Shown here: positions 18,430-58,100 of the stretch, piece by piece
Layout of the letters: every line of letters begins with the position of its first letter
How positions within the stretch are numbered: position 1 is the stretch's first letter
Assembly (NCBI GenBank): GCA_030704615.1
Contig: CM060732.1
Location: forward strand, 4,836,001 to 4,900,000
Origin: Takakia lepidozioides
Lineage: Eukaryota > Plantae > Bryophyta
Reading direction: 5' to 3'
Length of the DNA stretch: 64,000 nt
Notes under the pieces: model-generated
The model's database searches: none
Seen by the model: the letters and a program-made list of their open reading frames with translations, nothing else
Told to the model about the DNA's origin: nothing
Position numbers and translations under genes: made by a program

Positions 18430-18560
18430 GCTAACATTTGTGTTGAACACTTGGAGCGCATCCACGATGCTTCCGCATTTTACAGACATGTTGACAATGG
18501 TGTTGTGTAGAAAAACATTCAGCTTGAATCCACTTTGGATAATGTGAGCATGCACCTGCA
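18430..18560 (-). pseudogene. PPR fragment
   Basis: QVHAHIIQSGFKLNVFLHNTIVNMSVKCGSIVDALQVF. Confidence 0.8.
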
Positions 18561-18591
18561 TTCTTGCTGCCACTCTACACACTGCTTTCTT

Positions 18592-32044: not shown

Positions 32045-32109
32045 ACCTGGGCAGATTTACATGATAGCATGCCATACTGGTGTAAAGAACAGCGACATGA
32101 GTGGTGATC

Positions 32110-33266
32110 GGTATATCCTCAAAGCTGAAATTGTTCCAGGAATCTTCAACCTGGAGACTGCCCTTTCCGACATGAATGCCAAATGCGGGAGCGTAAGCCA
32201 ATTGTTTGTCGAAATGATTAAACGAGCATCACCCAGGGCCCAGAGTAAGATCTCCATCTGTTGCAGCCGCTTAACTGAGCCCAACCCCGAGCTCGAATAT
32301 ATGCTACCAGGTTTTCAGAATTCTGTTCCTAATCTGACCTGCATGCCAGAAGTGCAAATGCAAGGACAGGCCATGCTCCTACTTCCAAATGCGGTACTCT
32401 CTTCCATGGACAGCCCGCCGGTCTCCCCAACAGTGACACCCTCTCCAAGTGTAGACTGTGCAGCATCAGTTGCACACACTAATGTCTCAGGTGCCAGGTA
32501 TACCAACAGCAGGAGCATGAAGGATGCATGCCAAAGGTCTGGCGATAGGAACGAACGAGTAATGACCTCATGGAGTACAGTGATAGCTGGAGATGCCGAA
32601 CATGGAGGCGTTTCTGTGGCTCTCAAGAAACCATGTCTTTGGAGAACCCTGATTGCACACTTTACTTTTACTGGAACTGCTCTCAGCAGGTTGCTGGCGA
32701 AGCTACTTGTTCAAGGGAATGCTAACTGTAGTCTTCAGATCACCCACCATTCTCACATTTTGCGGCAGGAAGAAAAAGTTGCCCATGAGGAAGAATCGAC
32801 ACATAATAAGATCCATGGACAGTCTGCAGGCCAGGCGAGAGGACATTGTAGAGAAGTTAATGCCTACGAAGGAAAGTGCTACTGTTTTGGCTGATTCACA
32901 TGCACCCAGTGTAGACCATGACAACTCCGAAACATCAGACCTAGCTGTATCAACAGCTTTGGCAGGAAAAGAGATTTTTCTTAACGGAATGACGGAGGTG
33001 GTGGTTGATGGTTCTCCAAGCGATTTTGGGGAAATCTGCAATCCTGGATATGCCCAGCATGGTTGTGGTAGGGAGGCTTTTGAGATGTCTGTACAAATGC
33101 AATGGGAAGGGGTGCAGCCCGGCAGTGTAACATTCATTTGTGTTCTCAGTACGTGTGCCACTCTTGCAACCCTGGGAAAGGACAAAGGTGTCCATGCTGA
33201 CATCATCAAAGCTGGAATCTCACCTGATATCATTCTGAAGACTGCCCTTGCTGATATATATGCCAT
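32110..33266 (+). pseudogene. Further PPR fragments interleaved with unidentified sequence
   Basis: ETALSDMNAKCGSV, TSWSTVIAGDAEHG and GYAQHGCGREAFEM..EGVQPGSVTFICVLSTCA..VHADIIKAG. Confidence 0.75.
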
Positions 33267-35370
33267 GGTTCACCAATTCCACCCTGAGGCTCAACTTTTT
33301 GTCAATGATTCTCCTTATGGCCTTCTAAGCAGCGATCTGGCATCCAGTCTCTGTCAAGGTAACTACCCCAACGTCTATCTCTTCCAAGTATTTGAAGTGC
33401 TCATATTGCCCCCATGTATATCACAGACCCTCTCTCCAAGACAGTGGCCCCCTGTTCCCACCATTGCATGTGCTAACCAGCAGGATTGTTTTTGTAAATC
33501 ACACCCCCAAGGACTGGTCCCTCGACTCTTTCCGACTCGGATCACCTCTCCCTTGTTACAATGATCTTTTACATTAACACCTTTTTTTTCCATAGCTGTA
33601 CCTGCTGGTACACCAGAATTCCAAATTATCTACTCTGCATGTGTTCCTCCTCTCAAATAATTGATAAGGCCTCTATCCATGATGCCACTCCTTCTATTTA
33701 CCTGCTGCTTCCTGATCATCACTCTAATCTTCATCCGTTTCTTCCAGGTTCAATCTCGAGGAAGGACTATGCTGCATTTTCGATTCTCTCTCCCCAAGCT
33801 ACTTGGGCATATGTACTCTCTCCATGTCAAACAATTCCGCACCAATGCTACTCTATATGCATGATTTTACTCCAAAAATTTTACTCCATGTTACCACTCA
33901 ATGACATCAAAAAACATCGCACTATCATCAGAATGCTCGCCATCCCCAAGGCGTATCTCATCCATCTACGATTCGTCATTATGTTCCTAACGTCTTTCAT
34001 CCACCTCCCATTCGTCCTGGTCTTCCAGACGTTTATCACCCATCCGCTATTCATCACACTGCACAGCCCACATATCAGGACATATGCAAAAACATCTATG
34101 CTTATGGGCCCTGTACATCTCTCCCCCAAACTCCCATGCAATGAATCGATTTTGCATTCCACTCACTACGTTTCACGTACCCACTACTCATCCCTATCCT
34201 CTAATATAATCCACCTGCACATCAAACCTCACAAACTACGGCTCAAACAATACCAGTACCTTCCCAGATTGTGGTTGTGGCACTCCATTTTACGTCATTT
34301 CACATCCACACCTATCCATTAACACATATATACCAATTTAACAACATAAGTTATGATAAATTTCCTCCATTACTTGGACTTCCCATGTACACTTAGCTAC
34401 TTGCTCCACTATTACCGATGACACCCCATACACTCTTATAATAGCTACCTCCCATGCACCCCTACTCCTCGGTCCCTCCAAATCCACCTCATAACCCACT
34501 GCCGGCATGGAAGATACCACCAAAAACCTCTGGTATCCAAACACTCATCTCACCATCCACCGTCCCACTTTAAATCCTATAAACTTGCCTGTGAAACACT
34601 TATCCTCCTTCGTTGCGGCGACATTCACCCAAACCCAGGCCCCTCTACCATCACCAGCATCATCCACAAACTTCCCAAGGACCATCAAGAAAGATATGAA
34701 TTATATTTCCAAAAAGACACCGTCTCGTACCTGCATATCAACACCTAAGCGACCACTTCTCCCCCTTTCTTCCCAACCCATCCACCAATATCCACAAACC
34801 CACACACCCAATCGCCACCTTTGGGCTTCCAGCCTGTCAAAAACCCTTCCCTAGTCAATGTCACCAGGAACTTAACACATACCCTATACAACACCTCATT
34901 TTCTCACTAATCATCGTCATCTCCCCAATACCCTCAATATGTGACGACTATTTTAGAAGCCAACCAGACTTAGACATATGCTCACTACTACAACAATTAC
35001 ATAACTTACCTCCGTTACCTCACAAATATCTAGCACCCCTACACTATCTGCATAACCTCCACGAATCTCTCAACCTGATGCAAGCCAAGCCCGGAGAAGT
35101 CCATATAAAATTAGGTGAACACCTGGCACACCCAACTGAAGCCACACAAGAGTTCAACACCATTGCCAACAAATTCCCATTTCTCTCCGAACAAATTCTC
35201 ACTGCCACCCTCCAAGCCAAGGAAGGCATACCTAGATATCAACCCCCACCCATGACAACACCACCTACCCCCTCACCTTGCCCACATAACCCACCAGAAC
35301 ATTACCTCCAGAACCTACTAGATCCTCCAGCCCCTCACACACCCCTCCCTCACAGAGTGCACACTCACTC

Positions 35371-35755
35371 AACATAATAACTTGGAATGTAGGATCACTT
35401 GCCACAAGCATTCAAAGCCTAATCTATCTCACAGACCACATACCCCCGCATATTCTCCTACTACAAGAAACTAAACTTAACACACACAACCCCAATAGGT
35501 CCTATATTAACAAACTCCTCACAGCCTACTATATGCAGTATGGCAACTCGTTCACAGCTGCACAATACCTCACCAGACGTTCAGTGCCATACTATCCAGC
35601 CCGCGGAGGGGTGGCTTTCGGTATCCTACGCACACATCACTCCCCCAGTACCACGGTTAAAATATCTGTCGCCCTCCCCCTCCGTTCACACCTTCAAATC
35701 ATCAAAATACACCTCCCCGCCCCCCCCCCCCCATTATCCTTATGCATTTATACAT
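35371..35755 (+). mobile_element. LINE APE endonuclease N-terminal fragment within a C/A-rich degenerate non-LTR region (about 33270-35755)
   Basis: From 35371 the frame reads NIITWNVGSL..PHILLLQETKL, with RGGVAF further on. Confidence 0.8.
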
Positions 35756-35879
35756 GACAGAGACGACTTCATCCAAGCGCCCTCGGATGGAAATTCGGCG
35801 CTCCAAGACGACTTCATCCCAGCCCACTCGGATGGAAATTCGGCGCGTTTTTCCATCCGGGGGATGATCTCTGGCAGCT

Positions 35880-37688: not shown

Positions 37689-38671
37689 GGATCATTGGAA
37701 CAATGTACCGCCCTCATCAGCATCTCCTGCCCGTCTGGTCCAAATTTCCATTGTTTTCCTCCTCGATACTGATAGTAAGTAGATTGTTGCATGATGGCCC
37801 TCATAATGTCTTCTGTTGTTGTGGTCAGGATGTCAACGAAATGTGCCGCCGACAAAACTCAAAACCCATTTCTCCTCTTGTGAACCTGACCATGGTACCT
37901 GCGGGTTTGCAATGCATGTTGCGTAGTTTACCACAGTGGCAGCCACCTTGCTGGTGCGTGATCGATGCTTAAGAGGATAGCACATGGGATGCTTTATACT
38001 ACCTCTTGGTTTATGACGGGGATTGGTTGTGTCCACAATGCACTGCATAGTCGTATGGACACAACCATGGAAGGTCAAGAATAAACATGAGACCAAGGTA
38101 TTAGGATACCAATACACGAGATACCTAGCTCAAGTTCACAGATTACAAGAAGACGACTAATGATGGGGCTACCTTTGTACCTAGCCTCTTGATCTATCGA
38201 ATTTGAATACAATAAGAAGAGTTGTAGATGACTTATTAAGCTATTATTATGGCTATTATTACCTTATTATAGTTATCTGGAGCTTGGGGGGGTCACTCCC
38301 CGTATTTTCAAAACCACGTGAGAACAAATATAGGGTGTAGTTTATTTTTTTGAGGTAAATTTTAGAAAAGTTTTACTTCAAAAATATGGTAGGACAATAT
38401 CCTTTCATCCAGTTTTTTTTTTTTTTTTTAAATCACAAAAAATCCAGAGTTTTATCTAAAAAATTAATGTAATAAAGGGTTTTATCTAGAGTATAATATA
38501 TCCATCATTGTGAAGTTTCTCATATTTCATCCAACTCTAATCCATCATGATGAAATCTTCTCAAAACTTCATTAATTCATCAGGCTTATTTGATGAATAA
38601 GCCTGCTCTACCAAAATCTGGGGTCCTTCGATTATGATGTTTTTGAATTGGTTCTCCAAAGGTAGAGGTCA

Positions 38672-41600
38672 TGTCATGGTTTTAGTCATGGTTAACTAGA
38701 ACTACCTACTTCTAGTTAACTAGGATATTTTGGATATTTATATTTGTATTTTGTGTGTTGGGACTTCATTTGGTCTCATATGCCAAGTGAGGTGTCAAAC
38801 CTCACTTGGGACATGAAGATGGGTTTTCCCCTTGTGAGTGTTGAGGAGGGCTCATCTTCTTATAGTTGAGCCTCTATGAGCCTCTCCCACCTCCACAGCT
38901 CTAGGTATTGAGAAGGAGTGTGGTGAGGGCTTTGTAGGATGGATTCCTTTAGCAAAGGTGCCCTTGGCTTGACTTAGTTTATGTGATTGAGTGGATTCAT
39001 GAGTGGAATATTTCCATTGTGTTCACTTTCATTATCACTACAAGAAGATCACCTTATGCTTGTGAGTGTGGAATGCAAGGATTAGTTTAGCACTTGTGTT
39101 GGTATACACCAAAGAGTGAGAGAGCTAGGAAAAGCTCATGTATTTCACAAGGCTTGCAAGGTGTTGCAAGGAAAGGTGCTTGGTGAAGTTGCATGCACCA
39201 AAGAATTGGAGAGCTAGGAGAATTTAGCTCTTGTATCACAAGGTTTGCAAGGAAAGGTACTTGTGGTGTTACACCAAGGTGTTGGGGAGCTCAAGAAAGA
39301 GCTTGTTTGCCACAATATTTGCAAGGATTGCAAGAGGGAAGTCTTGTGTGTGTGGAAGCATGGATTCTAGGGATTGAGAATCATTTCTATGCATTATGGA
39401 GTCAATGGTGTGTACCATGGCTTGTGGAGAGCAACTAAATGATTGTTAGTACTCAATTCACTATCAATCTAGGGTTAAGCAAGCTCAAGTGTGGATGTTG
39501 TGGAAGAGAAGCCAAGGAGCTACATAGGCTTGGGCTTGAAGACAACAAGAGCAAGCACTTGGAGAGCATTAGGAAGCTCAAAAGGTTTGAAGGGGAGCAT
39601 GTGAAGAAATCTTCCAATCATGGTGGTGTAAAGCCAAGCTTAGGGCATTGGAAAGGCTTGGAGAACAACTTGTGGAAAGTCCTTGAAGAAAAGAGATTGT
39701 GGCTCAAGGCATGCATAGCAACTTCAACCATACATTAGCGTGTGACAAGACAAGGAAGGGGAAGGTGAAGCTCATGTATTCATTCCCTTTTGGCTTAAGT
39801 TTTGTGGTGGATGGTTGATCAAACAAGTGATGCTTATGTGGAGCATGCTTCCCAAGTGTGGCTTCCAATTTTAAGCTTGAGGAGAGCTAGAAGATAAAAG
39901 GAGCAAGTTGATTCCCTTGTGTATGAAGTGATGCATGTGTGAAGCATGCTTTTGGCTTGAGCTTTGCCCTTTCAAGCTTGAGAGGAGTGACTCTTGAGCT
40001 AGCAAGTGAAGGGAGCTTGAATGACCAAGGCTTGAGAGGAGACAAGGCTTGGTGGCTTGCCAAATGAGGTACAAGCTTGATTTTGAGTTCCAATGAGAAA
40101 TTGAGCTTGTTGTGTGGCCAATGCATTGCTAGTTGAGTTGGAGACAAACTTGAGTAGCTTAAGGTAAAGAAGATCAAGGGAATTTGCCTTGGTACCCCAT
40201 AGAATTCATGGATGCTTGAGGGGATTAAGCATAGAGCCCCAAGGAGCACAAACCCTAGCTTGGTAAGGCTAAACCTCAAGGAAATAGAGGGGGAAGAGGC
40301 TAAAGCCTAGGGGGAAATGGCTAAACCCTGGGGGGGAAATGAACTACTCTATGAGGGGGAATTGGCTATTCCTAAGGAGAATACAAAGGGAATACAAGGG
40401 GAATACGTATAGGCCCAGGGGAATACTGGGAGAATACTATGGTATATTCTTAGGAATATTCTTAGGGAACCCATTGGGAACACATTGGGAACATGGTGAC
40501 ATAAGAAGAGTCCTTGGAGGACTGTTTGGGGTCCTTGGAGGACCATTTGGAGGACCATTGGGAGTCCTTGGAGGACTATTTGGGGTCCTTGGAGGACCAT
40601 TTGGAAGACCTTTGGGAGTTCTTGGAGGACTGTTTTGGAGTCTTTGGAGGACCATTGGGAGTCCTTGGAGGACTGTTTGGAGGACCATTGGGAGTCCTTG
40701 GAGGACTACTTGGAAGACCATTGGGAGCCGACCCCCCCTTCCCTACCACTACCATCCAGCCCCCCCCAAGAGCCTGCCAAAACTTAGCCCTCGAGGACCC
40801 CAAATAGTCCCTCACACAAGTCGCCAAAGACTCCTCAAGCTCGCCAAATATTGGCCTTCAAGGACCCCAAATAGTCCTCCAAAGAACTCCAAATGGTCCT
40901 CCAAATGGTCCTCTAAGGACCCCAAACAGTTGGGTTCGATCCCCATCCGAGTCTAGGCTGTAGGGGGATACCTTTACTTGTGAGAGAAACATCTAGTATC
41001 ACTAAGTTCAACACTTGGTGTACTGTTTTGGAGTCCCATTGTGCAAGGATTGGGAACCTTAGTGAGATTGTTTGAGAGACATATTCTTGAGGGCTCATAG
41101 AGAGTTATTTGAGAGACCCTTGAAATGTAGTCTTGTCTATTATTCAAGCAAGAGAGTGTGGAGATAGGGTAGTGGGATGAGGGCATGCTGGGATTAGGAA
41201 TTGCTTTAGTCTCTCTTCCTTGTAGTCTTTCACCTTCTCTGTAGGCCAAAACATTTCCGTAGGTGGAGGCAAGAATCAGTCCGGGTTTGGGCTGGGGTGT
41301 CATTGCAAGAGCGACACTGTGAGTGTTTTTGGTGTGGGGGAGTTGTTGTCTTGATTTTCTTGTGTTTGGATCCCCTCCACACCTGCATGCTTGACTGTGC
41401 ACCATGTTAGCTTTGTGTGGGCGCTTGTTTTCATAGGAGGTTGGTCCGGATTTGATCACCGGTCAATCCTAGAGCGTGCTGTCGGTGAGGCTGTGGTAAT
41501 GACTAGTCAAACCATCATTGTTTCTCTTATGGTGAGGCTGGGTTGATGACCAGCAGACAATCGGAGTACTTGCGGTGGATACAGGTGCAGGTTTATGTTA

Positions 41601-41700
41601 CGAACCTAGTAGTCTAAGCCATAAGCCGCAACAGGTTCTCTACCCGGTTACCTTGTGGAAAGGGAGATTATAGACAAGTTTACAACAGGTGTGGTTGTGA
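38672..41700 (+). mobile_element. LTR family A copy directly upstream of gag, with an internal inversion
   Basis: TGTCATGGTTTTAGTCATGG at 38672; ends ggttgtga at 41700 (terminal CA missing). 40764-40925 is inverted relative to 11740-11845. Confidence 0.8.
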
Positions 41701-43440
41701 GTTTTCATCACGGAGGTGCCACCAGTTGCTGAAGAGAGTGCCGGTACGAGCACCAACGATACTAGTGGGTATACAAGACGAGGTGTGCGGTTTAGGCCAC
41801 CTTCACCTTCAGTGTCTTCTGAGGAAGGTTCAGACTCAGAGTTAGGAGGATTCTCGTCGAGGGTGCAAGCCATTTCCATGCCATTCTTGTGGGATACGAT
41901 GGAGGAAATATATGGAGCTACCAAGGGGCCACGTCGGTACTCTGGAGAGATGGGCACCATCGAGCTTGATGATTTCATACAGGAGTTTGATAGTTGGTGT
42001 GATTTGCAGCAGATGCGCAATCCACAACTATTTACGTCTTTTATGGTGTGGAAGGGGCTGTTTCAGCACCTTGAGGGGCCGCCCATGGATGACTACCATG
42101 AGTTTAGGCGGGGACATGAGGTGGAGATTGAGGAATGGCGGGTGTATTGGTCACCTGACTATGTCTCCATCACTAGAGACACAAGGGCAGTGGTGACACC
42201 GACAGCTACACCGACAGCCTCTACAAGCAGCAGTGGGATGTCAAGTGGAACAGGAGCTCGAAAGTCCACCCAAGCCCCTGCTACAGCACCAACACCCGTG
42301 CCTGCCTTTAAGCCAGTTGTGGAGTTCTTCGAGGAGTTAAGGAGAAACTACCAGGAAATAAGGACGGAGAAATTGCGGAGCTTGCAAGAGTTCCAACGAA
42401 AGCCTACCGAGAGTTTAATGGAGGCTTACACGCGCATGAGGCGATTGATAAATGTAACCCAAGGGGTTACGGAATCTCAAGAAGTCCAATTCTGATATGG
42501 GATATTGGACAAAGAGCTGATGAGAAGGGTGCGGGATGCAACTCTCCTACAAGTGGCCCAACCCACCTTAGCAAACGTGTTTTTGCTGGCAGAGCGGATA
42601 GAGCTCAATATGGTGGAGGAGCGAGTGGTCATGGTGGGTTTTGGTAAGGAGACACAACGAAGTGGGGTTCCTAGCCAACAACAACCACTACCCCAACGTG
42701 CTCAAGGCAACAAAGAGGCTTAGGCGAAGCCCAGGGAAGGACAGAGAGGATCTCAATTGCAGAGGTCACTTCCTTCATTCTCAGGCCAACAACAGTCGGG
42801 AGTGACATGTTGGGATTGTGGAAGACCCCACGTTAAGAGAGATTGCCCGAAGAGAGGCAAAGGGCCGGCACAGGCACAGCCTACACAACCACAATGTAGG
42901 CATTGTGGCAAGTATGGGCATGAAGAGACCCATTGTTATGACTTGCATCCTGAGCTACGGCCAGGCCAGTTCCAAGGGAACAATGGTGGCCGAGGACGAG
43001 GCAATGTATTCCAGAGAGGTAGAGGAGGCAGAGGTCGTGGTGGACGTCGTAACCAAAACCAAGGAGCACAGGGTCAAGGTCAAGGTCATGACCAAGGCAT
43101 GGTGGATAGGCTTGCCCAGCTAGAGCAATGTCTTCTACCATGGCCACTACTCATGTTGCGTCAGCTCCAAGGCCTGAGGTTCAAGCCCCACCTGCACAAC
43201 CTCCTATGCCTAGGGAAGACCAGATTGGTATGGGCTTCATGTGTGGAGCCGCACTTGCAGGACCATTGCATGTGGACTTTGCAGCTGCTATCACTCGAGC
43301 AGCAATGCGTGCTCCTGAGCCAAGAGGAGCGGATATGGATTTTGATCCACAAAGAGGGAAACAAGTCGGAAGACAAGACTTCCATAGTCTTTCACATTGG
43401 CTGAGACAGTGCCAACTATGCCATCGATGACACCCGCTCA
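41701..43440 (+). pseudogene. gag: Ty3/Gypsy gag (capsid, two zinc knuckles, RGG tract), disrupted
   Basis: PRRYSG..LDDFIQEFDSWC and FQRKPTESLMEAYTRM; knuckles CWDCGRPHVKRDC and CRHCGKYGHEETHC; stops at 42493 and 42721. Confidence 0.85.
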
Positions 43441-43779
43441 CCAAATGTGTCAGAGGTAGAGCCACGAGTGCCATTGAGGAGAGTTGGTATGGCTCGGGAA
43501 ATGCCAATGGGTGGTAGTGCAAAGCAAGGTGCAGCCAGTATATTGTTGGGGGCGGCTACGGCAATTTGCCAAGCTCCATTGTTTTCTGCCACGACAATTG
43601 CAATGCCGGGGATGCGGCCAGCTGCAGTGTTTAGATTGGCAGCTGCACTCTGTGAGAGTGGTGATGCATCGGCACTATCTACGGGGATAACGGATCAAGT
43701 GCAGTGCATGGATGCCCTGGATTCAAGGGTGAAGACAGTCACAGCTGCGCCATGGCAAGCGGCAGCTGCAAGGTTGCAG

Positions 43780-44230
43780 CAGTTGTCAACTAGACCAGCC
43801 ATTGAGCGTAGTATGGTGACTCCTGGGGTAGTCCTGGTGGACAATCAGGATGGGATGTTTCAGTTGGGTGGCCCAGCCGGGAGGAGGTATATGCCACTGC
43901 GGGTCTTGTTGGATTCGGGAGCACAGCCATTGATGTTGGGGAGAGCAGCAATTGCACGCTTGGGCCTTACAGAGGCGGATTTGGAGCCTTGTCCTTTCCA
44001 AATTCAAACATCTTTGGGCGGTTCAGAGAAGGCACGAGGGATTACACACCATGAGCTCTTCATTCGATTGCAGCCATATCATCCTACAGATGGCTCTGTC
44101 ATGAGAGCTAAAGCCATTGTTACGGACGCGATGTTTTATGATGTGTTTGTTGGTGGGGCTGTGTTATACCCAATGGGCTTTACTTTGGACTTTTGGGAGG
44201 AAACGACATCCTACAGGCCGGAATGACAGT
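43780..44230 (+). pseudogene. Retrotransposon aspartic protease
   Basis: VLLDSGAQPLMLG active site at about 43903, with YDVFVGG downstream. Confidence 0.85.
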
Positions 44231-44599
44231 CAGGGGATGGTCGACGTGCACTGCTCCTAGTGCGGTTTATTGGGAATGTACCGGTGGATCATATAAACAT
44301 GATGCCCACATTGGCTGCATTCTCAGGGGTGGTGGCTTGGGGTGGTGAGCTCTTGGAGGGCAATAGCCATGCAGATGATAGGCCACCACCTGATGAGGAC
44401 AAACAATTGGCATACAAGGCTGATTTGCTTTCTCATGTGCATGTTCATATTCCACTGTGGGGTACAGTTAGGAATTTGCATCGAGTAGCAGGCGAGTGTG
44501 TGCACCAAATATGGTAGGAGGCCTATCCATTGGTGAGTGAGGGGAGTTCAGTGACATCACCTGGACCTCCTCAGTTAGCTCCTTTGGACACAGTGCCCA

Positions 44600-45500
44600 T
44601 TATCTGGCAACCACCTGACTCAGGGATTTGTTTGCTAGACATGTTTGGAGGTATGAGCACTGGGCTTGCAGGAGTGTTGCAAGCAAGGATTAAAGTACAC
44701 AAGTACTTGTATTTGGAGAAGGATGAGATAGCTCGGCATATTTCTATGCGCCACATCGCCTTGCTCACACACCGGTATCCTGAGTTGTTGCCTCTCTCAG
44801 TAATTTAAGGGTATCAAAAGGCCTTGCCAACAGACATTACCTTGCTGGGGGCGAATGATTTGGACCGGCATGGTGCCATTGACTTGGTAATAGCTGGATG
44901 ACCTTGCCAAGGACACTCTCCTGCAGGTCATGGGAATGGCTTGCATGATGCATGATCGCATTTGTTTTGGGAGATGTTGAGAGTGTTGCATGACTTGCAG
45001 ACGTGACAAGTGCAACCTCTAGCATATATCTTGGAGAATGTTCCTCTTATGGGGGACTCTCGGGCCAGGGTTATGGCCAGTGTGCATCAGGTGCGGTCTT
45101 GGATTGGATCGGCGGTGCTATTGGATGCAGCAGCGGTGGGATCACGAGCGCATCGACCTCGATTGTGGTGGACCAATCTTGCACCACCAGAGCTGCTCAA
45201 GAGAGCATCGATTCCATTCAATGGCCACCCAATCGCACAGTTGAGGGCATTTTCGAGTGGGGCAGCCACATGTAGCCTTGCCTACGCTCATGGGCTTTCC
45301 CCTGTCTCATGTTTTTTGAGACAATGGTCCTAGGTTGATTTGGGACAGTGTGCTATAGCAATTGGTAGAGCCCAATGCGGATGAGCGAGAGCGGGCAATG
45401 GGATTTGTCATGGGCACTACAGCTGTGTCAGCTGTGTTAGAGGCATCACGCCGACAAATGTTGGGTCAAGCAATGGATCTAAATTGCTTGACATGGGTCA
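44600..45500 (+). pseudogene. C5 cytosine DNA methyltransferase domain inside pol
   Basis: Motif I LLDMFGGM; II YLEKD; IV DLVIAG*PCQGHS (Cys at 44905-44907); VI YILENV; VIII AHRPRLWWTN; IX ERERAMGF; X RQMLGQAMD. Motifs I-VIII share the protease frame. Confidence 0.92.
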
Positions 45501-45999
45501 TTGCATTGGCTTGTGCATGGCTGAACAACAGAGGTTGCAGACAGTGGTGGTTACTTCTGCACTCCCATTGGGTATTGCATCCTCTCTGCCTACCGGGACG
45601 GTTGAGGTAGTGAGTGGGGGCGAGTACATGATCATGGGGTGCAAACATCCATGGCAGATGTAGGATGAGATGCGGAAAGATAGAGTCCTTGGATCTCTCA
45701 AGTAGCAATATGAGGAGTGGGGAGAGCCATACACTGAGGATCAGTTGGAGGCCAAGGTGGCCAATGTTTTTGAAGAGGTTGAGAATGTTTCTTCCCTAGA
45801 GGATGTTCTCAAGGTAGCTATGGCGGAGCAAGTGGAGGCTACGCCACGGTCAGGGTGGGCAGATAGGGCCCAAGAGGTTGTTATCTAGCAACCAAATGAT
45901 GCGTCTCCTACCTCCAAGCCTGGTGTACCCAAGGTTGCAGTCACTGAGGACAACTGGGAACCAGATGTTGGACCTACAGTCACCGGAGGAGAGAGTCGA

Positions 46000-46495
46000 A
46001 AGATCCAGCGATTTCTAAGGGCTTATAGAAATTGCTTTGCCTTTGGTTTGAAGGATTTGGGGAGTTTGAAGGGCCAGGAGATTCATAATGATTTGGCAAG
46101 TGACACGCCAATTTTTTGAAGGCCCTACCGGTATAGTGACATGGAGAGGTCATTGATCCAGTCACGGACTATGGAGCTGTTCGAAGCTGGATTGGTGGAG
46201 TTGTCAGGCGGGGAGTATGCCTCGGCAACGGTGATGTTAGCTAAGAAAGATATCTATGGCAATTAGATAGAAAGAAGGATGTATGGGAACTATCGTCTTG
46301 TGAATTGTCAGACTAAGTCCGATAGATATGTCATGCCAACTCCAGAGAAGATCTTTGATGCCATTGGGCATGCAAAGGTGTTTAACACATTGGACTTGCG
46401 ATCCGGTTGCCAATCAAAGAGGCTGACAAGTAAAAGACGGCATTCTGGGGGATTGACCAACATGGGAAGGATTGCTTGTACTAATGGCGGTTCCT
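46000..46495 (+). pseudogene. Ty3/Gypsy reverse transcriptase N-terminal part; YxDD region and RNase H deleted
   Basis: PIF*RPYRYS..EAGLVELS..YASATV..KKD..RRMYGNYRLVN..DRYVMPTPEKIFDAIGHAKVFNTLDLRSG..KTAFW, then a jump to pre-integrase sequence. Confidence 0.88.
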
Positions 46496-46559
46496 ACAAC
46501 GAGCCAAGAGGTTCAAGTGGGAGGGGACTCACCTACTCCGAGTATGGGAGGATGGACGA

Positions 46560-47665
46560 GTGAGGATTGTGCCTCATCCAACACAACGAGCGCGATTGGT
46601 ACGCCATGCTCATGAGGAGTTGGGACATTTTGGGGTGTGACGCACTCATAGTTTGTTGCAAGGACAGTACTGGTGGTGGGGCATGCACACGGATGTGCAA
46701 TAGTTAGTGGCAAGGTGTGGTGTGTGATAGAGTGCGGGCTTCTTTCAATGCACCTACTCCACAATTGCATCATTTACCCATTATGGGTTTGGGATATCGT
46801 TGGAGTCTTGACTTCGCAGGCCCATTGCCACTAACGATTCGCCATAACAAGTATGTGCTGGTGATGGTGAAACATTTCTCCAAGTGGATAGAACTGGTGG
46901 CATTGCCTGAGAAGGCAAGTGATGGGGCTGCGTATGCATTCTTAGATCGAGTGCTTCGCCAATTTGGTGCTCCAGCCGAGGTACTCACGGACCAGGGGAG
47001 AGAATTCTTGGGGGAGTTTCAGGCTTTGTGTGAGCAAGCCTTGATAGACCACCACACTACTTCTCGGGATCATCCCGAGACTGATGGCCTGACAGAGAGG
47101 GTTGTACAAACAGTCAAGCGAGGCTTGCGCAAGTATGGCTTGCAGAAGGGACACTTGGGAGATTGGGACCTTCAACTACTTGGTTGGTCATGGGCAACAG
47201 GTTTAGCAAGCAAGCATTATTTGCCTCGTTCTCGCCTTATTTCCTTCTCTTTGGCCGAGAGCCAGATTTGTCTGCATCTATTTACAGAGAGACTGCAGTA
47301 GTCCTCAATCTTGATGATCCGGACATATGTGGACACAAGCATGTGCCCAGCGGGCAGAATTGTTCAAGAGAGTCATGCCTATGGCTTTTGATAACCTTGC
47401 TATTGCCCAACACCGAGACACATTGAGGTACGTCACTATACATGGAGGGGGATATCGGCCAGGTATTCAGCGTTTCCACCCTGGGGACTATGTGTATCTG
47501 CAGCAGACAACGCCTACGACTTTGGATGTCACAGCAGGACGTGTGATTCTAAAGGTCCGGGAGGTATTGCCTTCAGGAGTGTTGATTTTGGAGGGTCGAG
47601 ATGGCATGGTGTGGAAGGACCATGTGTGCAATTGTGCACCATGTCACCTTCCACATGTGGATGGA
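46560..47665 (+). pseudogene. Integrase (HHCC, DDE core, C-terminal module)
   Basis: HEELGHFG..YWW.GM..C..CD; WSLDFAGPLP; VLTDQGREF; HPETDGLTERVVQTVK; FSPYFLLFGREP; FHPGDYVYL. Confidence 0.92.
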
Positions 47666-47706
47666 TGATAGATCCCAACCTTGCAGTGGTACCTGCAGGA
47701 TTGCGT

Positions 47707-47839
47707 TGCATGCTATGTGGGCATGCTCGTGGTGCCGCAACCATGCTGGTGTGTGACAAATGCTCAAGGGGGTGGCACATGGGATGCTTAACACCGCCAC
47801 TTGGAGGTTCCTAGTGGAGAATGGTTGTGTCCACGATGC
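47707..47839 (+). pseudogene. PHD finger C-terminal to integrase
   Basis: CMLCGHARGAATMLVCDKCSRGWHMGCLTPPL, a 1-nt frameshift, then EVPSGEWLCPRC: a C4HC3 pattern with the conserved W. Confidence 0.9.
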
Positions 47840-48100
47840 CTTGGACATAGGTAGTGGGCATGACAATGGTGGAGTTGACAAGTGATCCAAGGTCTAGCTG
47901 GTGGGAGCTCAACGCCATGGATACTCAATTGAAAATCATGAATTGCAAGCAGGCGATTAACGATGGGGCTCTCGTTGCACCTGGCCTCTTGATCCATATA
48001 CTTTAGAGAATTTGGACATGTGCGATTGAAGACCAAGCGATGATCTTATTGAGATGGATGCTTGTTAGCTATCCGGTGTTAGAGGGACCTAATTACTAGC

Positions 48101-48653
48101 TAGGGGGGCGATTGTGGCATAGCTTTCTAGGATTGTGTGCTTAGAATGTATGGTGGACAGCGATGTATATTGTGGCACGATGCTTAGGTGCACGACAGCT
48201 GTCATGGTTTTAGTCATGGTTAACTAGAATTACCTACTTCTAGTTAACTAGGATATTTTGGATATTTATATTTATATTTTGTGTGTTGGGACTTCATTTG
48301 GTCTCATATGCCAAGTAAGGTGTCAAACCTCACTTGGGATATGAGGATGGATTTTCCCCTTTTGAGTGTTGAGGAGGACTCATCTTCTTGTAGTTGAGCC
48401 TCCATGAGCCTCTCCCACCTCCATAGCTCTAGGTATTGAGAAGGAGTGCGGTGAGGGCTTTGTATGGTGGATTCCTTTAACAAAGGTGCCTTTGGCTTTA
48501 CTTAGTTTATGTGATTGAGTGGATTCATGAGTGGAGTGTTTCCATTGTGTTCACTTTCATTATCATTGTGGCATAGTTTTCTAGGATTGTTTGCTTAGAA
48601 TGTATGGTGGACAGCGATGTATGTTGCGGCACGATGCTTAGATGCACGACAGT
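48101..48653 (+). mobile_element. 3' end of the retroelement: PPT, duplicated 86-bp TGTGG..CGACA segment and a family A LTR fragment
   Basis: aggggggcga, then TGTGGCATAG at 48113-48198, repeated at 48568-48653; the family A start occupies 48200-48566 between them. Confidence 0.65.
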
Positions 48654-49134
48654 CACCTGAAGTTCAAATATGATTCTAGTTATACATAGTGGATTGATGT
48701 TGGGACCATAATCTCAACAGTGACTATGACATTTGAACCATCTCAGAACTTGTACTCTTTAGATCCAAGTGATGCTGTGGCTTTGAATGAGTTCGTGGCT
48801 AATGAAAATTACTATTCTCTAGGTCCAGCATTTGACTTATGTATGGAATGTTGTTTGTGTACATGATTTGAAATTTTGTAATTATTTAAAAAGATGATTT
48901 AAAATAAGATCTAATTAATTGTTGAAAAAAAAATTATAAAGAAAAATAGGGTATTACGAAACAAAGGGTTTTACAATATTACCTAAAGATAGGATGGAAA
49001 AAAATGCAAAATTTAAAAAATATAGCATAGTATAAATATACATTTGTACGCACGTGATATGGAAAAAATACATATAGTGACCTCCCCCGTGATCTGGAGT
49101 TAGGGTGACCTAACAGCCACCAGTTAGGGGTCCA

Positions 49135-52178: not shown

Positions 52179-55100
52179 ATGGCTGCATCAAGAGAACCGG
52201 AGGATGTGATTATATCAAGAGGCGGCTCAGTGCTTGGCAAGAAGACGATTTTGAAGAGTGATCACTTTCCCGGATGCCAGAATAAGCGACTGTTGCCTCA
52301 TGTGGATGGAGCTCCTAACTATCGACAGGTTGCATGCGTGTCCCCATTTTTACCAACAATGAATCTCATGCGTGGTTGATGTTGTAATGTCCGGTGCTTA
52401 CGTCGAGTCGAGAAAGTATTCTACTTCTGAGTAACCCCGCCTCATGATGGAATCCTTATTTAATGCTGTGAGGGAAAAACCAATTTTGTGGCCAATCCCT
52501 TACATGTTCCTACTTCTGCAGTTTGTTTCTCATTGGCTTATAATTAGCACGCCTTGGTCAACGACCGTCTGTGTCTTTCCGATCTACTGACGCCTCCCTT
52601 TTCCAAATAGCTCGTTACCATGAATCCCATGCCTCTAGTCTGTTGGGGCGGCTCTTTTAAAACCGATATGTGGTGCAGGGGTGTTGTTACGTGTGAAATA
52701 TGCCTGAATGGGGAGATAGCATCGATTCATGATTGAGGTCCTTCATGAAACCGAGCGCTTGGTACAAGATTGGGAATGGCTGTCTGGACAACTAGTTTCA
52801 CAACTAAATTACAGTTCAATTCTTGTCCATCTCAGTTGTGAGGCATACTAGATGTAGGAGAACGACTTGTTCGTACGCTTTAGTGAGAAAGGGCGAGCAG
52901 ATGTTGAGTTTCGAGGGAGGAAATGCAGGTGGGGTCAATGCCAGTGTACGGAGTAGCCATCCCCACTGTTGACGGGATACGAAGAGTGTTGGAGCTAGTA
53001 GCAGCAAGTAGGTACGGTGGCCACCGTGTCCTGTGGCACAACCTGCGAGAAGAACCGGTATATGCCTCTGCTCTACTCTGTGACATAGTCCTGCTGGTTT
53101 GGAGTATTCACAAATCTCAACTTCATTACAGCAGGTGAAAGCCTTTCTAGGCCAAGGTTCAGCTACCTACACTGCTGGCTTAGCTGTGAGAGTTGGGTTC
53201 TCAGTGATATTTGCGTGTCGAAAGGTGGCTGTGAGTCTGAATGGATGACCTGTGTGTTTAACTCGGACAGGTTGTATATGTCAATGGACGCCCATTTGTT
53301 TTGCGGGAGGTGGAACGACCCTTCACAAATTTGGAGTACACAGTAAGCTCTCTTTATTCCTTCAGTATCTTTCTCCAACGTCTACCATCTGCATATTGTA
53401 TGCGTATCTCTTTTGATAGTGGCATGTCTCTCCATATGGTGCTTGCAAGGTGGGCCACAGGCACTGAGATTTGACATGCTTAATAGATTTTAGGTCTGAA
53501 AACAAGGTGTCAGTAAGGGCATGATACCTCAGTGGGGTTAGATTTGTGGGATGGACGATGATCATTGCATGGGATAGCCAATCGATCCTCATACTACCTT
53601 TTCAAAAGGTGGTGGCACCCTTCTTTAGTTGAGTAGTCAGTTTGGGAGTGGTGCTTTGTCTTTGTACCCCTCTTCTGGTGGTGCTTCTTGTTGGGCATTC
53701 ACACATAGTAAGTGCCCAGTTGCCTGGATTGACCTGCAGTCTGTTTGTTTTACGCCATGTCATGTTCTCAAGTATACAGAGGGGGTTGCTTGCAGTTTGC
53801 ACGAGATTTCTTGTGTGTTTCTCCCAAAAAATCAGAAAAACATACTCCAACGTGCATTCACCTCCAGCTTTGAATGGATCCCTCATGAGTTGTGGGCAAA
53901 TGGAGAGTTGGACGGAGCTTACCTCTCCTGTCACAACTGGTATCCAGTAGTGAAGTGGACAATGGACTTGATTTCTGCTTCAAGTACAGAGAAGCAGCCT
54001 GATACGTACTTGTTGAACCTGAGAAGTTATGTAGTAGGTTTGGAAATCAGTGTTTAACATTCTCTAGCAGAATGTGATACGGCAGAGGCACAAGCCAATA
54101 AAAATCGGCAGACAGTAGGTTTATACGAGGGGTGTAGGGTGAAAAAAACTGCATTTTGCATAAAGAAGGTGGCATTTTGGAGTACGGATGACAACATAGT
54201 AGTAAAATGGTGGATGTATGTCATGTCCTAACCAATTATCCTGACAAAGTGTCTGTGGATTGGGCATTGCTGCAGGCCTCCCAGGTACGTGAACGCCTGG
54301 GGGCTTACTGCAAGTGTCCAATTTGCGGAGACTCCGAGGAGATGCAAAGTTTATGGTAACAACAAAAGTTTTAAATGCATCAGCAGGCTAGTGTGGAAGC
54401 CAGTGTCAGGTACAATGAAGGGCAAAGACACACACAAGCCTGGCATTGTTGTTGTGGAAGAGCCCCATGGACCATTACTGTCCTAGTATTACTTCCTAAG
54501 GGGCTTCTTAGCGAGTTCTTGTGTGTCATTCTATTGTCATTGAATGTGCGTCTCTTAGGGTTTTCTGTAAACCTTCCCTCCATGTTGAGATGCAAGGGTT
54601 ATGCTTCCTGTTTGAAAAGGGCAAGGTGCCCTTGCTCTTCAATGCACTCAGTGGCCGAAACCTGTCCATGTGTGCCTCCACTCCTGTGCCTTGTGCCGTT
54701 GGAACTGAAGTAAAAGCAAACTTAGACAGGGTTGACTACATTGGAGAGGGTTGGGCTATGTCATGTGTGCCAACAGGGAATCAATAGGCAAAGGGTGGAG
54801 CAGATGGAAGCTCGATTGAAGGAAGATGTTTTGAGGGAAGCTGCACGGTATGTTTTGTTAACTCTGCCATGTTTTCCTTTTATTACAGCAGGTGGATACA
54901 GCAGGTGGATTCTCTACTCCTGAGGGTGGCCAGGTTTTGATTAAAGATATGTGTTTGAACAAGCTGTTGGAATTTTGCACAGGTATGTGAACAAGGTGAT
55001 GGTCAGTGATGAGCTGCCTGATGGTCAAATGGTAGACCAATGGGAGCCCATTGGTCAAGACTCTGTTCAAACTCCTCTTGAGGTAAAGTGCTGTACGTTT

Positions 55101-58100
55101 TGTGGGCTAAGTTGACAGCCTTGCAGTGGGTTGGTGGACATTGCTAGGTATATGAAGATATATGGGCATGGAGTCACATTTTCTGTCTGGTATGGTGCAC
55201 AGGTGTATGAGAGTTTACAGGCGGAAGGCTACTTGGTTGATTATGAGCGGATACCGATCACTGACGAAAAATCACCCAAGGAACGGGACTTTGATCTTCT
55301 GGTCAGCCCTTCCCTCAACAAATTTGTTGCTTCAGGGTAACTCTTTTTCAGGGTTTTTAAAGTGGAGAAATGGTCTGTTGAGATGGAGTAGGTTTAGGTG
55401 GGTGTACTGATATAGTTTGGGGTGCAGGTACAGCGGCTCTCCCAAGCTGATGTGGGCACAAAGCTGGTGTTCAACTGTCAGATGGGGCGAGGCCGCACGA
55501 CTACAGGCATGGTTGTTGCTACCCTTATCCACCTGCGTCGTACAGGGGTCACAGGTACTTGATTGCTACCCAAATCACATTGCCCTGATTGTCCATTGCT
55601 TTTTACAATCGAGGGCTACCCATGTGTTCTGTGAAGTAGGTGTTTTTGTTCAAAGCAATATGCAGTGGACCATCCGGTAGTTTGCCTCACTTAGACCTCA
55701 AGATTACACTTGAAGAGGAGTTCGTAGAGGCTGCATATCCCAGACCAGCATTGCTGCAGTTTCAAGATAGGCCTCACAGAGCCTGGGAACAAGGCCTGAG
55801 CCCAATTTTGAGTCCTTGGTTTCAAACCTCTTGCCTCTTTCAGGATTCAGTGAGGAGTACAAAAGTCACCAATGTCTAAGTCCCATGAAGACAAGAGAAA
55901 GAGGTTGCATCTGGGCATGTTGCAGGGCTGCCAAGGTCAAGCTCAATGGGGCAGATTCATGAATCGGTAGAAGAAGTGATGTACGACGTGCCAGACTCTG
56001 ATGAGGCACTTAGGAGAGGTGAATACACTGTGATTCGTAGCCTCATCCGTGTGTTGGAGGTAAGCCTCGTATGTAGGATGAGGCCTCTCTCTGTCTTTCT
56101 CAGGAATCTTTCTTCTCTGCTGTAAGCTGGCCTCCTTACTACATGAAGAATGATCGTCTGTGTAGTCTCTGGACCTAACCCTTGGAAAAACTTGCCATGG
56201 CAGGGTGGTGTGGAGAGCAAACGACAGGTTGATAAAGTCATTGACAAGTGCTCTGCAATGCAGGTACCTGCTCACACTTATGGCTGCAATTAATGTTCAC
56301 TGTCATGTTCCCCAACCAGGAATGACATACTTGTAATTTGTGGTTTTGACCAAGCTTCTTGGAGTGCAGGGCTGGCAGGTTCTCAATTTAGGCTTTGTCT
56401 ATGACAGGGTGTGAGCCAATGTATTCTGTGACTTTCTCGGCATGCGTTTTGCAGAATCTGCGGGAGGCAATTGCAGGGTATCGTAACAGCATTCAAAGAC
56501 AGGCAGATGAAAAGAAGCGAGAAGCGGGACTGTCCCTATTTGTGGAGTACTTGGAGCGCTATTATTTTCTCATCTGCTTTGCAGTGTACATTCATACTGA
56601 TAAATCCTCTTCAGGAAGTCGCCGCCAACCAGGCCAGGGTGGCTTTCAACAGTGGATGCGTGCACGGCCTGAGCTCTACAGTATCCTCCGCAGGTCTTTT
56701 CTCTTCCTAAATTTTTTTACCACGGTTGCTCTGATGGACTCTTTTATCTTCTGTGGTTACTTTGTGCTGTGACATCTTCTGTGTTGATTCACAGGTTGCT
56801 GAGGCGGGATCCAATGGGTGCCCTTGGGTATGGAAATAACCCTCCAGGCTTTATCAAGAAGTCAACGGCGGTTGGGAATGGGCGTCCCAGTAATATGGAG
56901 ACTGTAGTGGCCTCCAGAAATGGAGAAGTGTTAGGAAGGCAGACGGTGTTGAAGAGTGACCACTGTCCTGGTTGTCAAAGCATGTACCTCCCAGAGCGAG
57001 TAGAAGGGGCACCCAACTTCAGGGAGGTGGGAGGTTTTCCTGTGTATGGGGTAGCCAATCCAACCATTGAGGGTATTCGTGCTGTCTTGCATCGGGTTGG
57101 TGATGGAAGCAGTGGACGGCCAGTTTTATGGCACAACATGAGGGAGGAGCCTGTTGTCTACATAAATGGCAAGCCTTTTGTGCTACGTGAAGTAGAGCGC
57201 CCTTACAAGAACATGCTTGAATACACTGTACGCATGAGCCCCTTTATTTTATTGCCGAAACATAGAGGGTGGGTATAACAGATGTATTTGAATCTCTAAA
57301 TCCACAGCCACTTTGCACCTCCTGCATGCTGTGCCTTCCAGAAGTTAAACCTTGCATCACATGTATCAAGGTAATATGGTTGCTTTGTTTTTCTACATTT
57401 CCTGCTTTAGTGGGCCATAAGCTGTAAATGGCAGAATTTGGAAAGTTTTCGGTGTGTAATTGGTGTGACTAGAGCTTGACTTGAAGAAGGGTGCCGCCGC
57501 TGTCCTGCATTGGATCACGTAGGGCATTGACAGAGAGAGGGTGGAGCAAATGGAGGCACGGTTGAAGGAAGACATATTGTGGGAGGCTGAGCGATATGCA
57601 GGTGCCATCATGGTGAATCATGAGACAGATGATGGACAGATTTTTGATGCTTGGGAGCCCGTGAGCCCGGGTGCTGTACAGACACCCTTGGAGGTTTATG
57701 AGTGCTTAGAAGCTGAGGGCTTTTGTGTGGAGTATGCAAGAGTGCCCATCACAGATGGCAAGGCTCCCAAGAGCTCTGATTTTGGCACCCTTGCTTCTCG
57801 CATTGCATCTGCTCCTCGGGACACTGCCTTTGTTTTCAATTGTCAGGCAAGTCCTGAGACACGCTATTAGGGTCACGTCTTGTTTTTGCTCTCACGTCTG
57901 ACATCTCTAGAAGTTGAGGCTCTCTCTTGCCCCCTGATTGACTGTGATTTGGCTGGCCAGATGGGACGTGGGCGCACAACAACTGGGATGGTGATAGCAT
58001 GCCTGGTGCTACTCCGCTGTGAAAAGGGAAGACCACTGAGGATGCCGGGCTTGCTAGCACCAAGTTCAGAGGTGGATAGTGGGTCAAGCAGTGGGGAGGA

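Follow-up and report, generated by a model that had tools for sequence, protein, structure and literature searches.

Within the window, the whole 64,000-nt stretch of DNA analysed here, lies a Ty3-type retrotransposon whose limits, split end repeats and coding domains are listed in Table 1. An earlier note on this DNA had assigned the interval 41,701..48,200 to the element; this interval is inside the element but too small, the true span being 38,672-48,651. Sequencing contigs from runs X1, X2 and X5 connect 38,667 to 48,652 directly and represent the empty site, and the read-derived contigs of the unique flanks show zero differences on either side of the element. A spliced moss gene is located 3.5 kb from the element in the window, and this neighbour, together with the placement from a quick host tree, identifies the host as a moss, a land plant. 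The target duplication, the empty site, the matching flanks on both sides and the nearby moss gene give a negative result for a chimeric contig. Among eight loci with both ends (L056 and L078 taken as one insertion), the target duplication is an exact 4 bp in five; three of four bases match in two others, and the left end is eroded in the remaining one. We discarded a model in which 38,672-41,700 was an LTR of 3 kb and 10,323-12,525 its solo counterpart, since A is the sole part found again at the 3′ end and the supposed solo LTR is a copy without target duplication.

Table 1. Coordinates of the element, its flanking target duplication, its end repeats and its coding features in the window
Feature	Position	Strand	Basis or remark
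GTCA, left copy of target-site duplication	38668..38671	+	end comparison
Whole element	38,672-48,651	+	TG...CA ends, 4-bp target duplication
Repeat A1, 366 bp, starts TGTCATG, left end of element	38672..39037	+	19 substitutions vs A2
Long 5′ non-coding region	39038..41898	+	contains 21/12-nt tandem repeat array (about 40,470-40,750)
Gag, two zinc-knuckle-like motifs (42,808-42,846; 42,895-42,936)	41899..43460	+	54% identical to residues 1-357 of Marchantia P0007
Aspartic protease, LLDSGAQ at 43,906-43,926	43822..44211	+	weak profile match, motif
Putative DNMT3-like C5 cytosine MTase	44623..45508	+	motifs I, II, IV, VI, VIII, IX, X, unpermuted order
Family-wide stop TAG, then CAACCA	45886..45894	+	predicted readthrough site into RT; ends ORF1 Gag-PR-MTase
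Pre-RT linker and N-terminal half of RT	45940..46496	+	tblastn with relatives
Integrase: HHCC zinc finger 46,551-46,718; DDE core 46,786-47,151	46551..47151	+	Pfam, motifs
C-terminal PHD finger, frameshift near 47,803	47707..47839	+	Pfam
Polypurine tract AGGGGGGCGA, directly 5′ of B1	48102..48111	+	same tract in seven loci with B1
Repeat B1, 85 bp, TG...CACGACA	48113..48197	+	repeat comparison
Palindromic B1/A2 junction GACAGCTGTC: right end, GC, left end	48194..48203	.	resembles LTR-LTR circle junction
Repeat A2	48200..48565	+	copy of A1
Repeat B2, ends CACGACA, right end of element	48567..48651	+	copy of B1
GTCA, right copy of target-site duplication	48652..48655	+	end comparison

Searches with Pfam profiles against frames translated with X at stops gave the domain order gag-protease-C5 MTase-RT(-RNase H)-integrase-PHD. 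Specifically, rve (E=1e-12), Integrase_H2C2 (1.5e-13) and PHD (4.3e-7) match the window frames, and Retrotrans_gag (0.0018) and Asp_protease_2 (0.0015) give weak matches below the cut-off. Two point stops interrupt gag, which is set apart from the protease by frameshifts in the interval from about 43,130 to 43,460. Pfam returned no RVT_1 match in the window frames; RT is detectable solely by tblastn with Marchantia relatives (46,216-46,496). A deletion of about 1.18 kb at about 46,497 has removed the YxDD half of RT and RNase H; YxDD is absent from every plus-strand frame, and the distance from RT to integrase is 570 nt in this copy versus 1,742-1,751 nt in four relatives. The reported loss of RNase H is correct, but the catalytic half of RT is deleted as well. 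With stops, frameshifts and about 1.2 kb of RT/RNase H deleted, the copy is dead, as claimed; its Ty3-type character also stands, with protease, RT and a DDE integrase after RT in place and RNase H kept in relatives. No tyrosine recombinase match was obtained in the three plus-strand frames, and no Chromo match follows the integrase in the Pfam search of the element frames, the PHD finger being found instead. The best PDB sequence matches of the PHD finger are DPF2/DPF3, ATXR5, PHF21A and KDM5, and its closest solved relatives are readers of the H3 tail.

The MTase matches Pfam DNA_methylase with E=1.9e-12 (47.7 bits, cut-off 22) in frames with X at stops, so its identity as a C5 MTase passes the profile test. 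Motifs I (44,638), II (44,710), IV (PCQ, 44,902), VI (ENV, in 45,031-45,042), VIII (45,145), IX (45,383) and X (45,461) are in the canonical order described before, and motifs I-VIII indeed share the reading frame of the protease; six point stops occur from the protease to motif VIII and four within motifs I-VIII. Motifs IX and X are in the next frame, downstream of a ~65-nt deletion with frameshift (about 45,207-45,257). The best PDB sequence matches are to DNMT3A (E 3e-13), and the predicted structure of a relative, P0003 (pLDDT 79.6), best matches DNMT3A/B (E 5e-19, TM 0.82 by target). By these comparisons the MTase is predicted to be DNMT3-like, a type assignment that rests on PDB sequence and fold matches because host DNMT3, DRM and REXdb references are not part of the domain trees described below; these trees leave the RT lineage unplaced. 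In a feature search, two of the three top clusters are viral C5 MTases, which reflects the fold only.

Across loci, the catalytic Cys is retained in 74/77 and the residues of ENV in 73/78, 75/78 and 72/77, and the motif VIII arginines in merely 47/78, 47/76 and 49/76. Between the window and the loci, where synonymous sites are near saturation (pS 0.75), MTase dN is 0.26-0.28, comparable to RT (0.21) and below the protease (0.41). Among dead loci, the estimates of selection on the DNMT are dN/dS 0.65 and 0.42; the value of 0.65, for motifs I-VIII, is above those of RT (0.34) and integrase (0.33), and decay after insertion may explain both this high ratio and the lost arginines. A deep comparison gives dN/dS of about 0.11, with dS estimable in just 20/79 and 31/68 pairs.

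The element belongs to a family. We found 25 homologues (15 from Marchantia polymorpha, 2 from Calypogeia fissa, 2 from Sphagnum and 6 others), and some of those from Marchantia polymorpha are Gag-PR-MTase chains of 1,250-1,280 residues with all motifs. MTase sequence is present in all 80 metagenome loci, the order is gag-PR-MT-RT-RH-IN-PHD where neighbouring domains exist, and the MTase is in the protease frame in 39/57. Family copies thus hold the MTase at the same slot, upholding the proposal that it is integral to the element and no later insertion. All 80 loci are dead: none has an ORF of at least 500 residues with element motifs, the two ORFs of such length being motif-free. In run X1, depth is about 0.9-1.5e5 for the MTase and 1.3-2.2e5 for the protease and RT, versus 55-59 for the unique flank contigs; read roughly, this points to about a thousand copies or more, a value from summed contig depth and not a copy number. 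In the MTase (96), RT-RH (89) and integrase (91) trees (FastTree local support), bryophyte elements join those of Closterium, and P0265, on a long branch, is outside the supported groups. The family in mosses and liverworts, judged from these sequences, is predicted to carry its own DNMT3-type MTase. A profile search with 150 matches also covered RT and integrase; it includes MTase-less Ty3 proteins and is no census of MTases, and the four named MTase-less Ty3 proteins in it are arachnid.

Downstream of the MTase, the context of the window stop fits the readthrough motif UAG-CAR-YYA (PMC3542737). All 30 loci with an in-frame MT-RT linker of normal length have a stop at the same codon, and the stop is followed by CAAC in 54/57. 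No sequence variant at 8% or more is listed for 45,886-45,896 in four sequencing runs, and CARYYA follows none of 582 other in-frame stops. In addition, the proteins P0007, P0008 and P0009 of Marchantia and P0005 of Calypogeia terminate 83-85 residues past the MTase. The stop therefore ends the Gag-protease-MTase ORF, and RT and integrase likely need readthrough. The context in the loci, CAA CCC, is one base off CARYYA, and most loci have an in-frame ATG two codons past the stop; instead of readthrough, reinitiation may give access to the downstream part. The earlier description of the MTase as part of the polyprotein is correct as to the protease frame, but with this conserved stop the MTase of bryophyte copies is not in one open frame with RT and integrase. 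In the algal same-slot elements P0212, P0354, P0357 and P0358, MTase and RT are in one chain, so dosage at Gag level is not universal.

Split direct repeats form the ends of the element: the layout is A-coding-B-A-B, and the B/A junction is palindromic. The layout is whole in L028, L056/L078 and L066, and B-A-B is present in L006, L040 and L071; of 24 loci checked, 14 carry just one B without a following A. Integration of a one-junction circle as the source of the single B was weakened as a candidate: L014 (single B) and L071 (B-A-B) have a right flank in common at 95%, so recombination or a collapsed assembly can turn the long form into the short one. The polypurine tract adjoins B rather than the left-end repeat, a departure from the canonical two-LTR layout. 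No tRNA primer-binding site was recognised by eye after A1 in the window element, no TGG primer site follows A1 in the six elements compared, and the 64,000-nt window has no tRNA gene. Foamy-virus integrase is described as cutting palindromic LTR-LTR junctions (PMC1180852). The split repeats imply an undescribed reverse-transcription route, in an integrase-bearing element whose ends LTR finders would likely mis-delimit.

The algal precedent for a DNMT-bearing retrotransposon, cited in the earlier note, is confirmed in PMC5890265 (de Mendoza et al. 2018), which describes KnitGypsy-Dnmt3 of Klebsormidium nitens, a Gypsy element with DNMT3. Compared by this description rather than by K. nitens sequence, both elements have the Gypsy domain set, carry within their coding region a DNMT3-like domain that is intronless and unpermuted, and share the DIRS-like layout A-coding-B-A-B; the authors report purifying selection on the algal DNMT. 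KnitGypsy-Dnmt3 resides in an alga, whereas the moss element has a moss host, liverwort relatives and apparently far more copies. Its DNMT, RT and RNase H are in one ORF according to the authors, an arrangement found in the algal-type P0212, P0354 and P0358 but not in the bryophyte copies, with their conserved stop between MTase and RT. The available text of PMC5890265 names no PHD (0 matches) and mentions neither a target duplication nor a palindromic junction, whereas the moss element has all three. Given the MTase/RT stop, the moss element appears to be a variant, not a member, of KnitGypsy-Dnmt3. SymbioDIRS-Dnmt3 of Symbiodinium likewise has a DNMT3-type domain in a retrotransposon polyprotein and A-coding-B-A-B repeats, but a dinoflagellate host and a tyrosine recombinase in place of the DDE integrase; dinoflagellate retrotransposon DNMT3s methylate CG de novo in yeast (PMC5890265).

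The EpiLTRs of Cymbomonas and Euglena (bioRxiv 10.64898/2026.05.21.726589) are also LTR retrotransposons that encode a cytosine DNMT together with a domain reading chromatin, but their DNMT is sister to DNMT4 and accompanied by DAM and a chromodomain, and in the part of the preprint available their authors separate them from streptophyte Gypsy-DNMT3. Plant Ty3 lineages in REXdb (chromoviruses, Phygy, Selgy, OTA; PMC6317226) share gag-PR-RT-RH-IN, the polypurine tract and a 4-bp target duplication with the moss element; they have canonical LTRs, the available text mentions neither MTase nor PHD for them, and the moss element has a PHD in place of the chromodomain. TG...CA ends and a 4-5 bp target duplication are common to canonical Ty3/Gypsy and the moss element, but the latter lacks the two complete LTRs of the former, and no tRNA primer site was recognised in it. 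According to a review (PMC6338049), in the part available, land plants such as tracheophytes have no methylase-encoding transposons, and the 2018 species table, as available, includes Physcomitrella and Selaginella but not Marchantia. Our literature search, thin on subscription papers, found no published land-plant retrotransposon with a DNMT, and such DNMT3-bearing elements do not seem to have been reported from land plants before.

With moderate confidence, we favour the reading that this moss Ty3-type family, with a DNMT3-like MTase at the end of the Gag-protease ORF, methylates its own new cDNA in the particle before integration. ORF1 (Gag-PR-MTase) would be the main product, and RT-RNase H-integrase-PHD would be made at a low rate via UAG CAA CC- readthrough; with the latter part made rarely, the MTase would be present at Gag-like numbers. 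The protease would free the MTase inside the particle, where cDNA would be the sole DNA, and the MTase would methylate it, most likely at CG by analogy with SymbioDIRS-Dnmt3. The internal palindromic B/A junction would serve to rebuild both element ends; the integrase likely cuts it, producing CA-3′ ends, before insertion with a 4-bp duplication, and the PHD likely reads histone H3 tails. A new copy would arrive pre-methylated, and would resemble resident DNA or damp its own expression. What the element would gain is not obvious, because self-methylation should promote silencing in a plant. Also against self-methylation are the high MTase dN/dS in dead loci and the Klebsormidium Gypsy enzyme, which showed no de novo methylation in yeast, a result that its authors call inconclusive (PMC5890265).

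An active MTase could instead act on host chromatin, travelling with the integration complex and methylating the insertion site or host DNA under guidance by the PHD, much as the ADD domain guides animal DNMT3; we consider this unlikely. A PHD with H3-tail readers as nearest solved relatives follows the integrase in bryophyte loci and in 40 proteins with the order RT-RH-MT-IN-PHD, and the MTase immediately precedes the integrase in chlorophyte-type elements. However, MTase and PHD are in separate ORFs in bryophytes, the Closterium proteins, of which some are truncated, gave no PHD match, and the K. nitens methylome is described as plant-like (PMC5890265).

As to origin, horizontal transfer from algae, or a DNMT3 capture independent of Klebsormidium, rather than streptophyte-algal inheritance, is compatible with any of the mechanisms and seems improbable. 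In its favour, the named distribution is patchy, with no fern, lycophyte, hornwort, seed plant, Physcomitrium or Klebsormidium among the named homology-search matches, and moss and liverwort MTases are 63-72% identical. Against this, all three domain trees set the bryophytes beside Closterium, which belongs to the algae that are sister to land plants, synonymous sites between window and loci are near saturation, and the rare split-repeat layout is common to the moss element and, by its description, that of K. nitens.

Less probable still is retention of the domain for a function that is not catalytic or not directed at DNA, for example to bind nucleic acid in the particle, to methylate RNA or to act as decoy for host silencing factors. 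The inactivity of the Klebsormidium enzyme in yeast is consistent with such a role, as is the replacement of Pro by Glu in the PC motif of Closterium and of 47/78 post-RNase H elements. However, the catalytic Cys is retained in 77/78 and 19/21 across proteins merely about 30% identical, Glu-Asn of motif VI, the motif VIII arginines and the SAM-binding motif I are conserved at that divergence, and the predicted fold matches DNA-bound DNMT3. A passenger or artefactual origin (entry of a host or bacterial MTase into a single copy, contig chimerism, or a domesticated host gene), which the viral clusters favour in fold only, is already refuted by the constant slot and spacing of the MTase across loci and named genomes and by the target duplication, empty site, flank contigs and moss gene described above.

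Beyond self-methylation of cDNA, a wider picture is possible, which we put forward tentatively: an ancient green-plant Ty3 clade, from chlorophytes through Closterium to mosses and liverworts, with an active DNMT3 and a PHD. It would replicate in a hybrid manner, with DIRS-like split repeats, no tRNA primer and ends from a palindromic junction cut by a DDE integrase; the bryophyte MTase would be held at Gag level by readthrough control, and its thousands of copies would be a transposon-encoded source of de novo methylation dissectable in Marchantia. It has been a question since 2018 why retrotransposons encode an enzyme by which they are silenced, and the known hosts are hard to handle; with at least 15 such proteins in Marchantia polymorpha, the question becomes testable in a genetic model. 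In bryophyte annotations, DNMT numbers can also come out too high through such retrotransposon proteins.

Profile searches of the three forward frames of positions 41,701-48,000, with stops read as X, match DNA_methylase, rve, Integrase_H2C2 and PHD domains, and give weak matches only to gag and protease, in accordance with the domain set, including a C5 cytosine methyltransferase (MTase), that the earlier note had proposed for this Ty3-type retrotransposon copy. Likewise, MTase motifs I, II, IV, VI and VIII are positioned in the protease frame as it had described, and motifs IX and X are shifted to the next frame past a ~65-nt deletion. RNase H, which it had called lost, is indeed missing, but the loss is larger: relative to four relatives, ~1.18 kb is absent, including the YxDD half of the reverse transcriptase (RT), of which only the N-terminal half is left. 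With these stops and deletions the copy is dead, as the note had concluded. The MTase stops at 44,806 and 45,004 are private to it, since another base is found there in >99% of the summed depth of X1, a sequencing run of the same organism. Differences between runs of the organism and the copy are mostly transitions (in X1, A>G at 229 places and T>C at 164 places), as would be expected if the copy decayed through deamination of methylated cytosines.

Features of the window, in window positions
Feature	Position	Strand	Remark
Left end, TGTCATG	38,672	+	after GTCA copy
Right end, CACGACA	48,651	+	before second GTCA copy
TAG CAA CCA	45,886-45,894	+	stop past MTase
Family fragment	10,323-12,525	+	begins exactly at A start, stops in 5' region
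Family fragment	37,688-35,879	-	exact A start, stops in 5' region; inverted, ~1 kb from main copy
Paladin-like phosphatase gene, spliced	52,179-62,179	+	in-frame stop at ~58,243-58,245 in a conserved exon (pseudogene, allele or assembly error)
Mosaic open frames	30,374-33,564	+	polyphenol oxidase, PPR and dynein (AAA_6) pieces, as expected of a gene-capturing transposon
Two inverted arrays	17,272-19,720		~228-bp repeats with PPR-like coding pieces
Fragments	1,453-1,788, 13,248-13,665, 15,419-15,802, 35,290-35,757		FMN oxidoreductase, B3 domain, LINE-type RT, endonuclease

The ends of the element differ from ordinary LTRs. A 366-bp repeat A stands at its start, while the PHD is followed by a polypurine tract and then by an 85-bp repeat B; GC separates this B from a second A, which precedes a second B. 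The two A copies (A1 and A2) differ at 19/366 sites, 16 of them transitions. Contigs from runs X1, X2 and X5 connect 38,667 to 48,652 and represent the empty site. The same A-coding-B-A-B layout recurs in metagenome loci L028, L056/L078 and L066 of the family. The first B was examined in 24 loci: in 8 it is followed by two bases and then A (GC in 4/8), in 14 it is single, in one the B/A join carries a deletion, and one locus ends at a contig edge. L014 (single B) and L071 (B-A-B) have a right flank in common (95%), so recombination or assembly collapse can turn the long form into single-B copies. No B match lies directly 5' of an A1, and no B-like sequence is seen by eye in 20 A1 left flanks. 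In the 8 loci with both ends, the 4-bp duplication is exact in 5 (two being one insertion), retains 3/4 bases in 2 and is unreadable in 1. KnitGypsy-Dnmt3, a Gypsy element of Klebsormidium nitens, is alike in that PMC5890265 (Fig. 4c legend) assigns it a DIRS-element repeat structure with Gypsy domains, a structure defined in Fig. 1e as A-coding-B-A-B.

The first B meets the second A in the palindrome GACAGCTGTC, composed of the right end, GC and the left end. A transcript that begins within A1 and stops within the second B would lack both tips of the element, and both would be available in this internal junction. Specifically, if both strands of GACAGCTGTC were cut after CA in a staggered fashion, two processed ends would result, as described for the cutting of LTR-LTR junctions by foamy-virus integrase (PMC1180852). 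We infer that the ends may be regenerated from the internal junction.

Our MTase query matches 25 proteins, including 15 from Marchantia polymorpha, 2 from Calypogeia fissa and 2 from Sphagnum, the closest at 66-70% identity. The Marchantia proteins P0007 and P0009 are Gag-protease-MTase chains carrying PCQ and ENV. A metagenome-contig scan with P0007 revealed 211 relatives, the best 80 of which were used as loci. All 80 are broken; all contain MTase sequence, and the order gag-protease-MTase-RT-RNase H-integrase-PHD is constant as far as contigs reach, verifying that other copies carry the domain at the same position. Independent insertions number fewer than 80, because the flanks shared within L014/L071, L056/L078, L030/L031 and L057/L059 indicate single insertions in different assemblies. 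The catalytic Cys is kept in 74/77 loci and the ENV residues in 73/78, 75/78 and 72/77, and the motif VIII arginines in only ~60-65%. Between the window copy and the loci, MTase dN is 0.26-0.28 (pS 0.75), similar to RT (0.21), with protease higher (0.41). Within the set of dead loci, the dN/dS values are 0.65 for MTase motifs I-VIII, 0.42 for IX-X, 0.34 for RT and 0.33 for integrase. The best PDB sequence matches of the protein P0020 are DNMT3A, and the first structural matches of the predicted model of the relative P0003 (pLDDT 79.6) are DNMT3A/B; by sequence and predicted fold, the domain is DNMT3-like. In X1, summed depth over the MTase, which is no copy number, reaches 0.9-1.5 × 10⁵, against 55-59 in the unique flanks. 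This suggests that the family is very abundant and that its MTase is roughly as frequent as its protease and RT.

A stop lies 85 codons past the MTase in 30/30 loci with an in-frame MTase-RT linker of normal length, and the chains of Marchantia P0007, P0008 and P0009 and of Calypogeia P0005 stop 83-85 residues past it. The bryophyte elements thus have Gag-protease-MTase in ORF1 and RT-RNase H-integrase-PHD in ORF2, so that the earlier placement of the MTase within the polyprotein holds for Gag and protease but not for RT, integrase and PHD. TAG or TAA is followed by CAAC in 54/57 loci. The window stop has no listed variant of at least 8% in the four runs covering it. It fits UAG-CAR-YYA, which in plant viruses serves as the type I signal for readthrough (PMC3542737) and occurs at 0/582 other in-frame stops. 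In the loci the stop precedes CAA CCC and, in most of them, an in-frame ATG, so that reinitiation is possible in these copies. A single chain joins MTase and RT in four algal-type proteins and, according to its authors (peer-review file of PMC5890265), in KnitGypsy-Dnmt3, in contrast to the bryophyte copies.

We consider it somewhat better than an even bet that the MTase would be synthesized together with Gag, packaged in many copies per particle and cut free by the protease, and would then act on cDNA inside the particle. PHD-guided action on the insertion site is improbable, and a non-catalytic role seems less probable still. The sole assay of the nearest described enzyme, from Klebsormidium, was negative and called inconclusive, and dinoflagellate retrotransposon DNMT3s methylated CG, both according to PMC5890265. 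The fingers of DPF, ATXR5, PHF21A and KDM5 are the nearest to the PHD; they mostly bind H3 tails that lack methylation at K4.

DNMT3-bearing retrotransposons are already known as a kind (PMC5890265), which confirms the algal and dinoflagellate precedent cited in the earlier note, and later literature speaks of 'streptophytes'. A review states that land plants such as tracheophytes lack transposons of this type (PMC6338049), Marchantia is absent from the searched supplementary files of PMC5890265, and our literature searches found no land-plant report. The paladin-like gene is closest to Ceratodon (80% identity), followed by Marchantia paleacea (76%) and Physcomitrium (75%), and in a quick tree (24 rows) it falls with mosses (SH-aLRT 99), outside Physcomitrium+Ceratodon. 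This placement identifies the host as a moss, probably one that branched off early, and supports the land-plant host previously claimed. Unique flank contigs are identical on both sides of the element, which speaks against a chimeric contig.

Wider relatives were taken from the best 150 matches of a profile search, among which 40 proteins read RT-RNase H-MTase-integrase-PHD and 30 RT-RNase H-MTase. The named members of these post-RNase H sets are from Scenedesmus and Haematococcus, and elements whose MTase precedes RT are named Closterium. The MTase tree (104 rows) unites bryophyte and Closterium elements (FastTree local support 96), and they also group in RT-RNase H (50 rows; 89) and integrase (56 rows; 91) trees built from near-complete domains only, with a hand-picked subset of post-RNase H proteins. 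The three groupings and two MTase slots fit one old green-plant lineage with a single slot change, inherited into bryophytes. Horizontal transfer instead of inheritance is less probable. No K. nitens sequence was found among the relatives, and no vascular-plant or hornwort name among the named matches. P0146-P0295 and P0345-P0380 form a large, diverse Ty3 set with RT-RNase H-MTase-integrase-PHD, again naming Scenedesmus and Haematococcus. We found no description of such chlorophyte elements in the literature examined; judged from these proteins, Ty3 elements with a DNMT3 seem to be frequent among chlorophytes.
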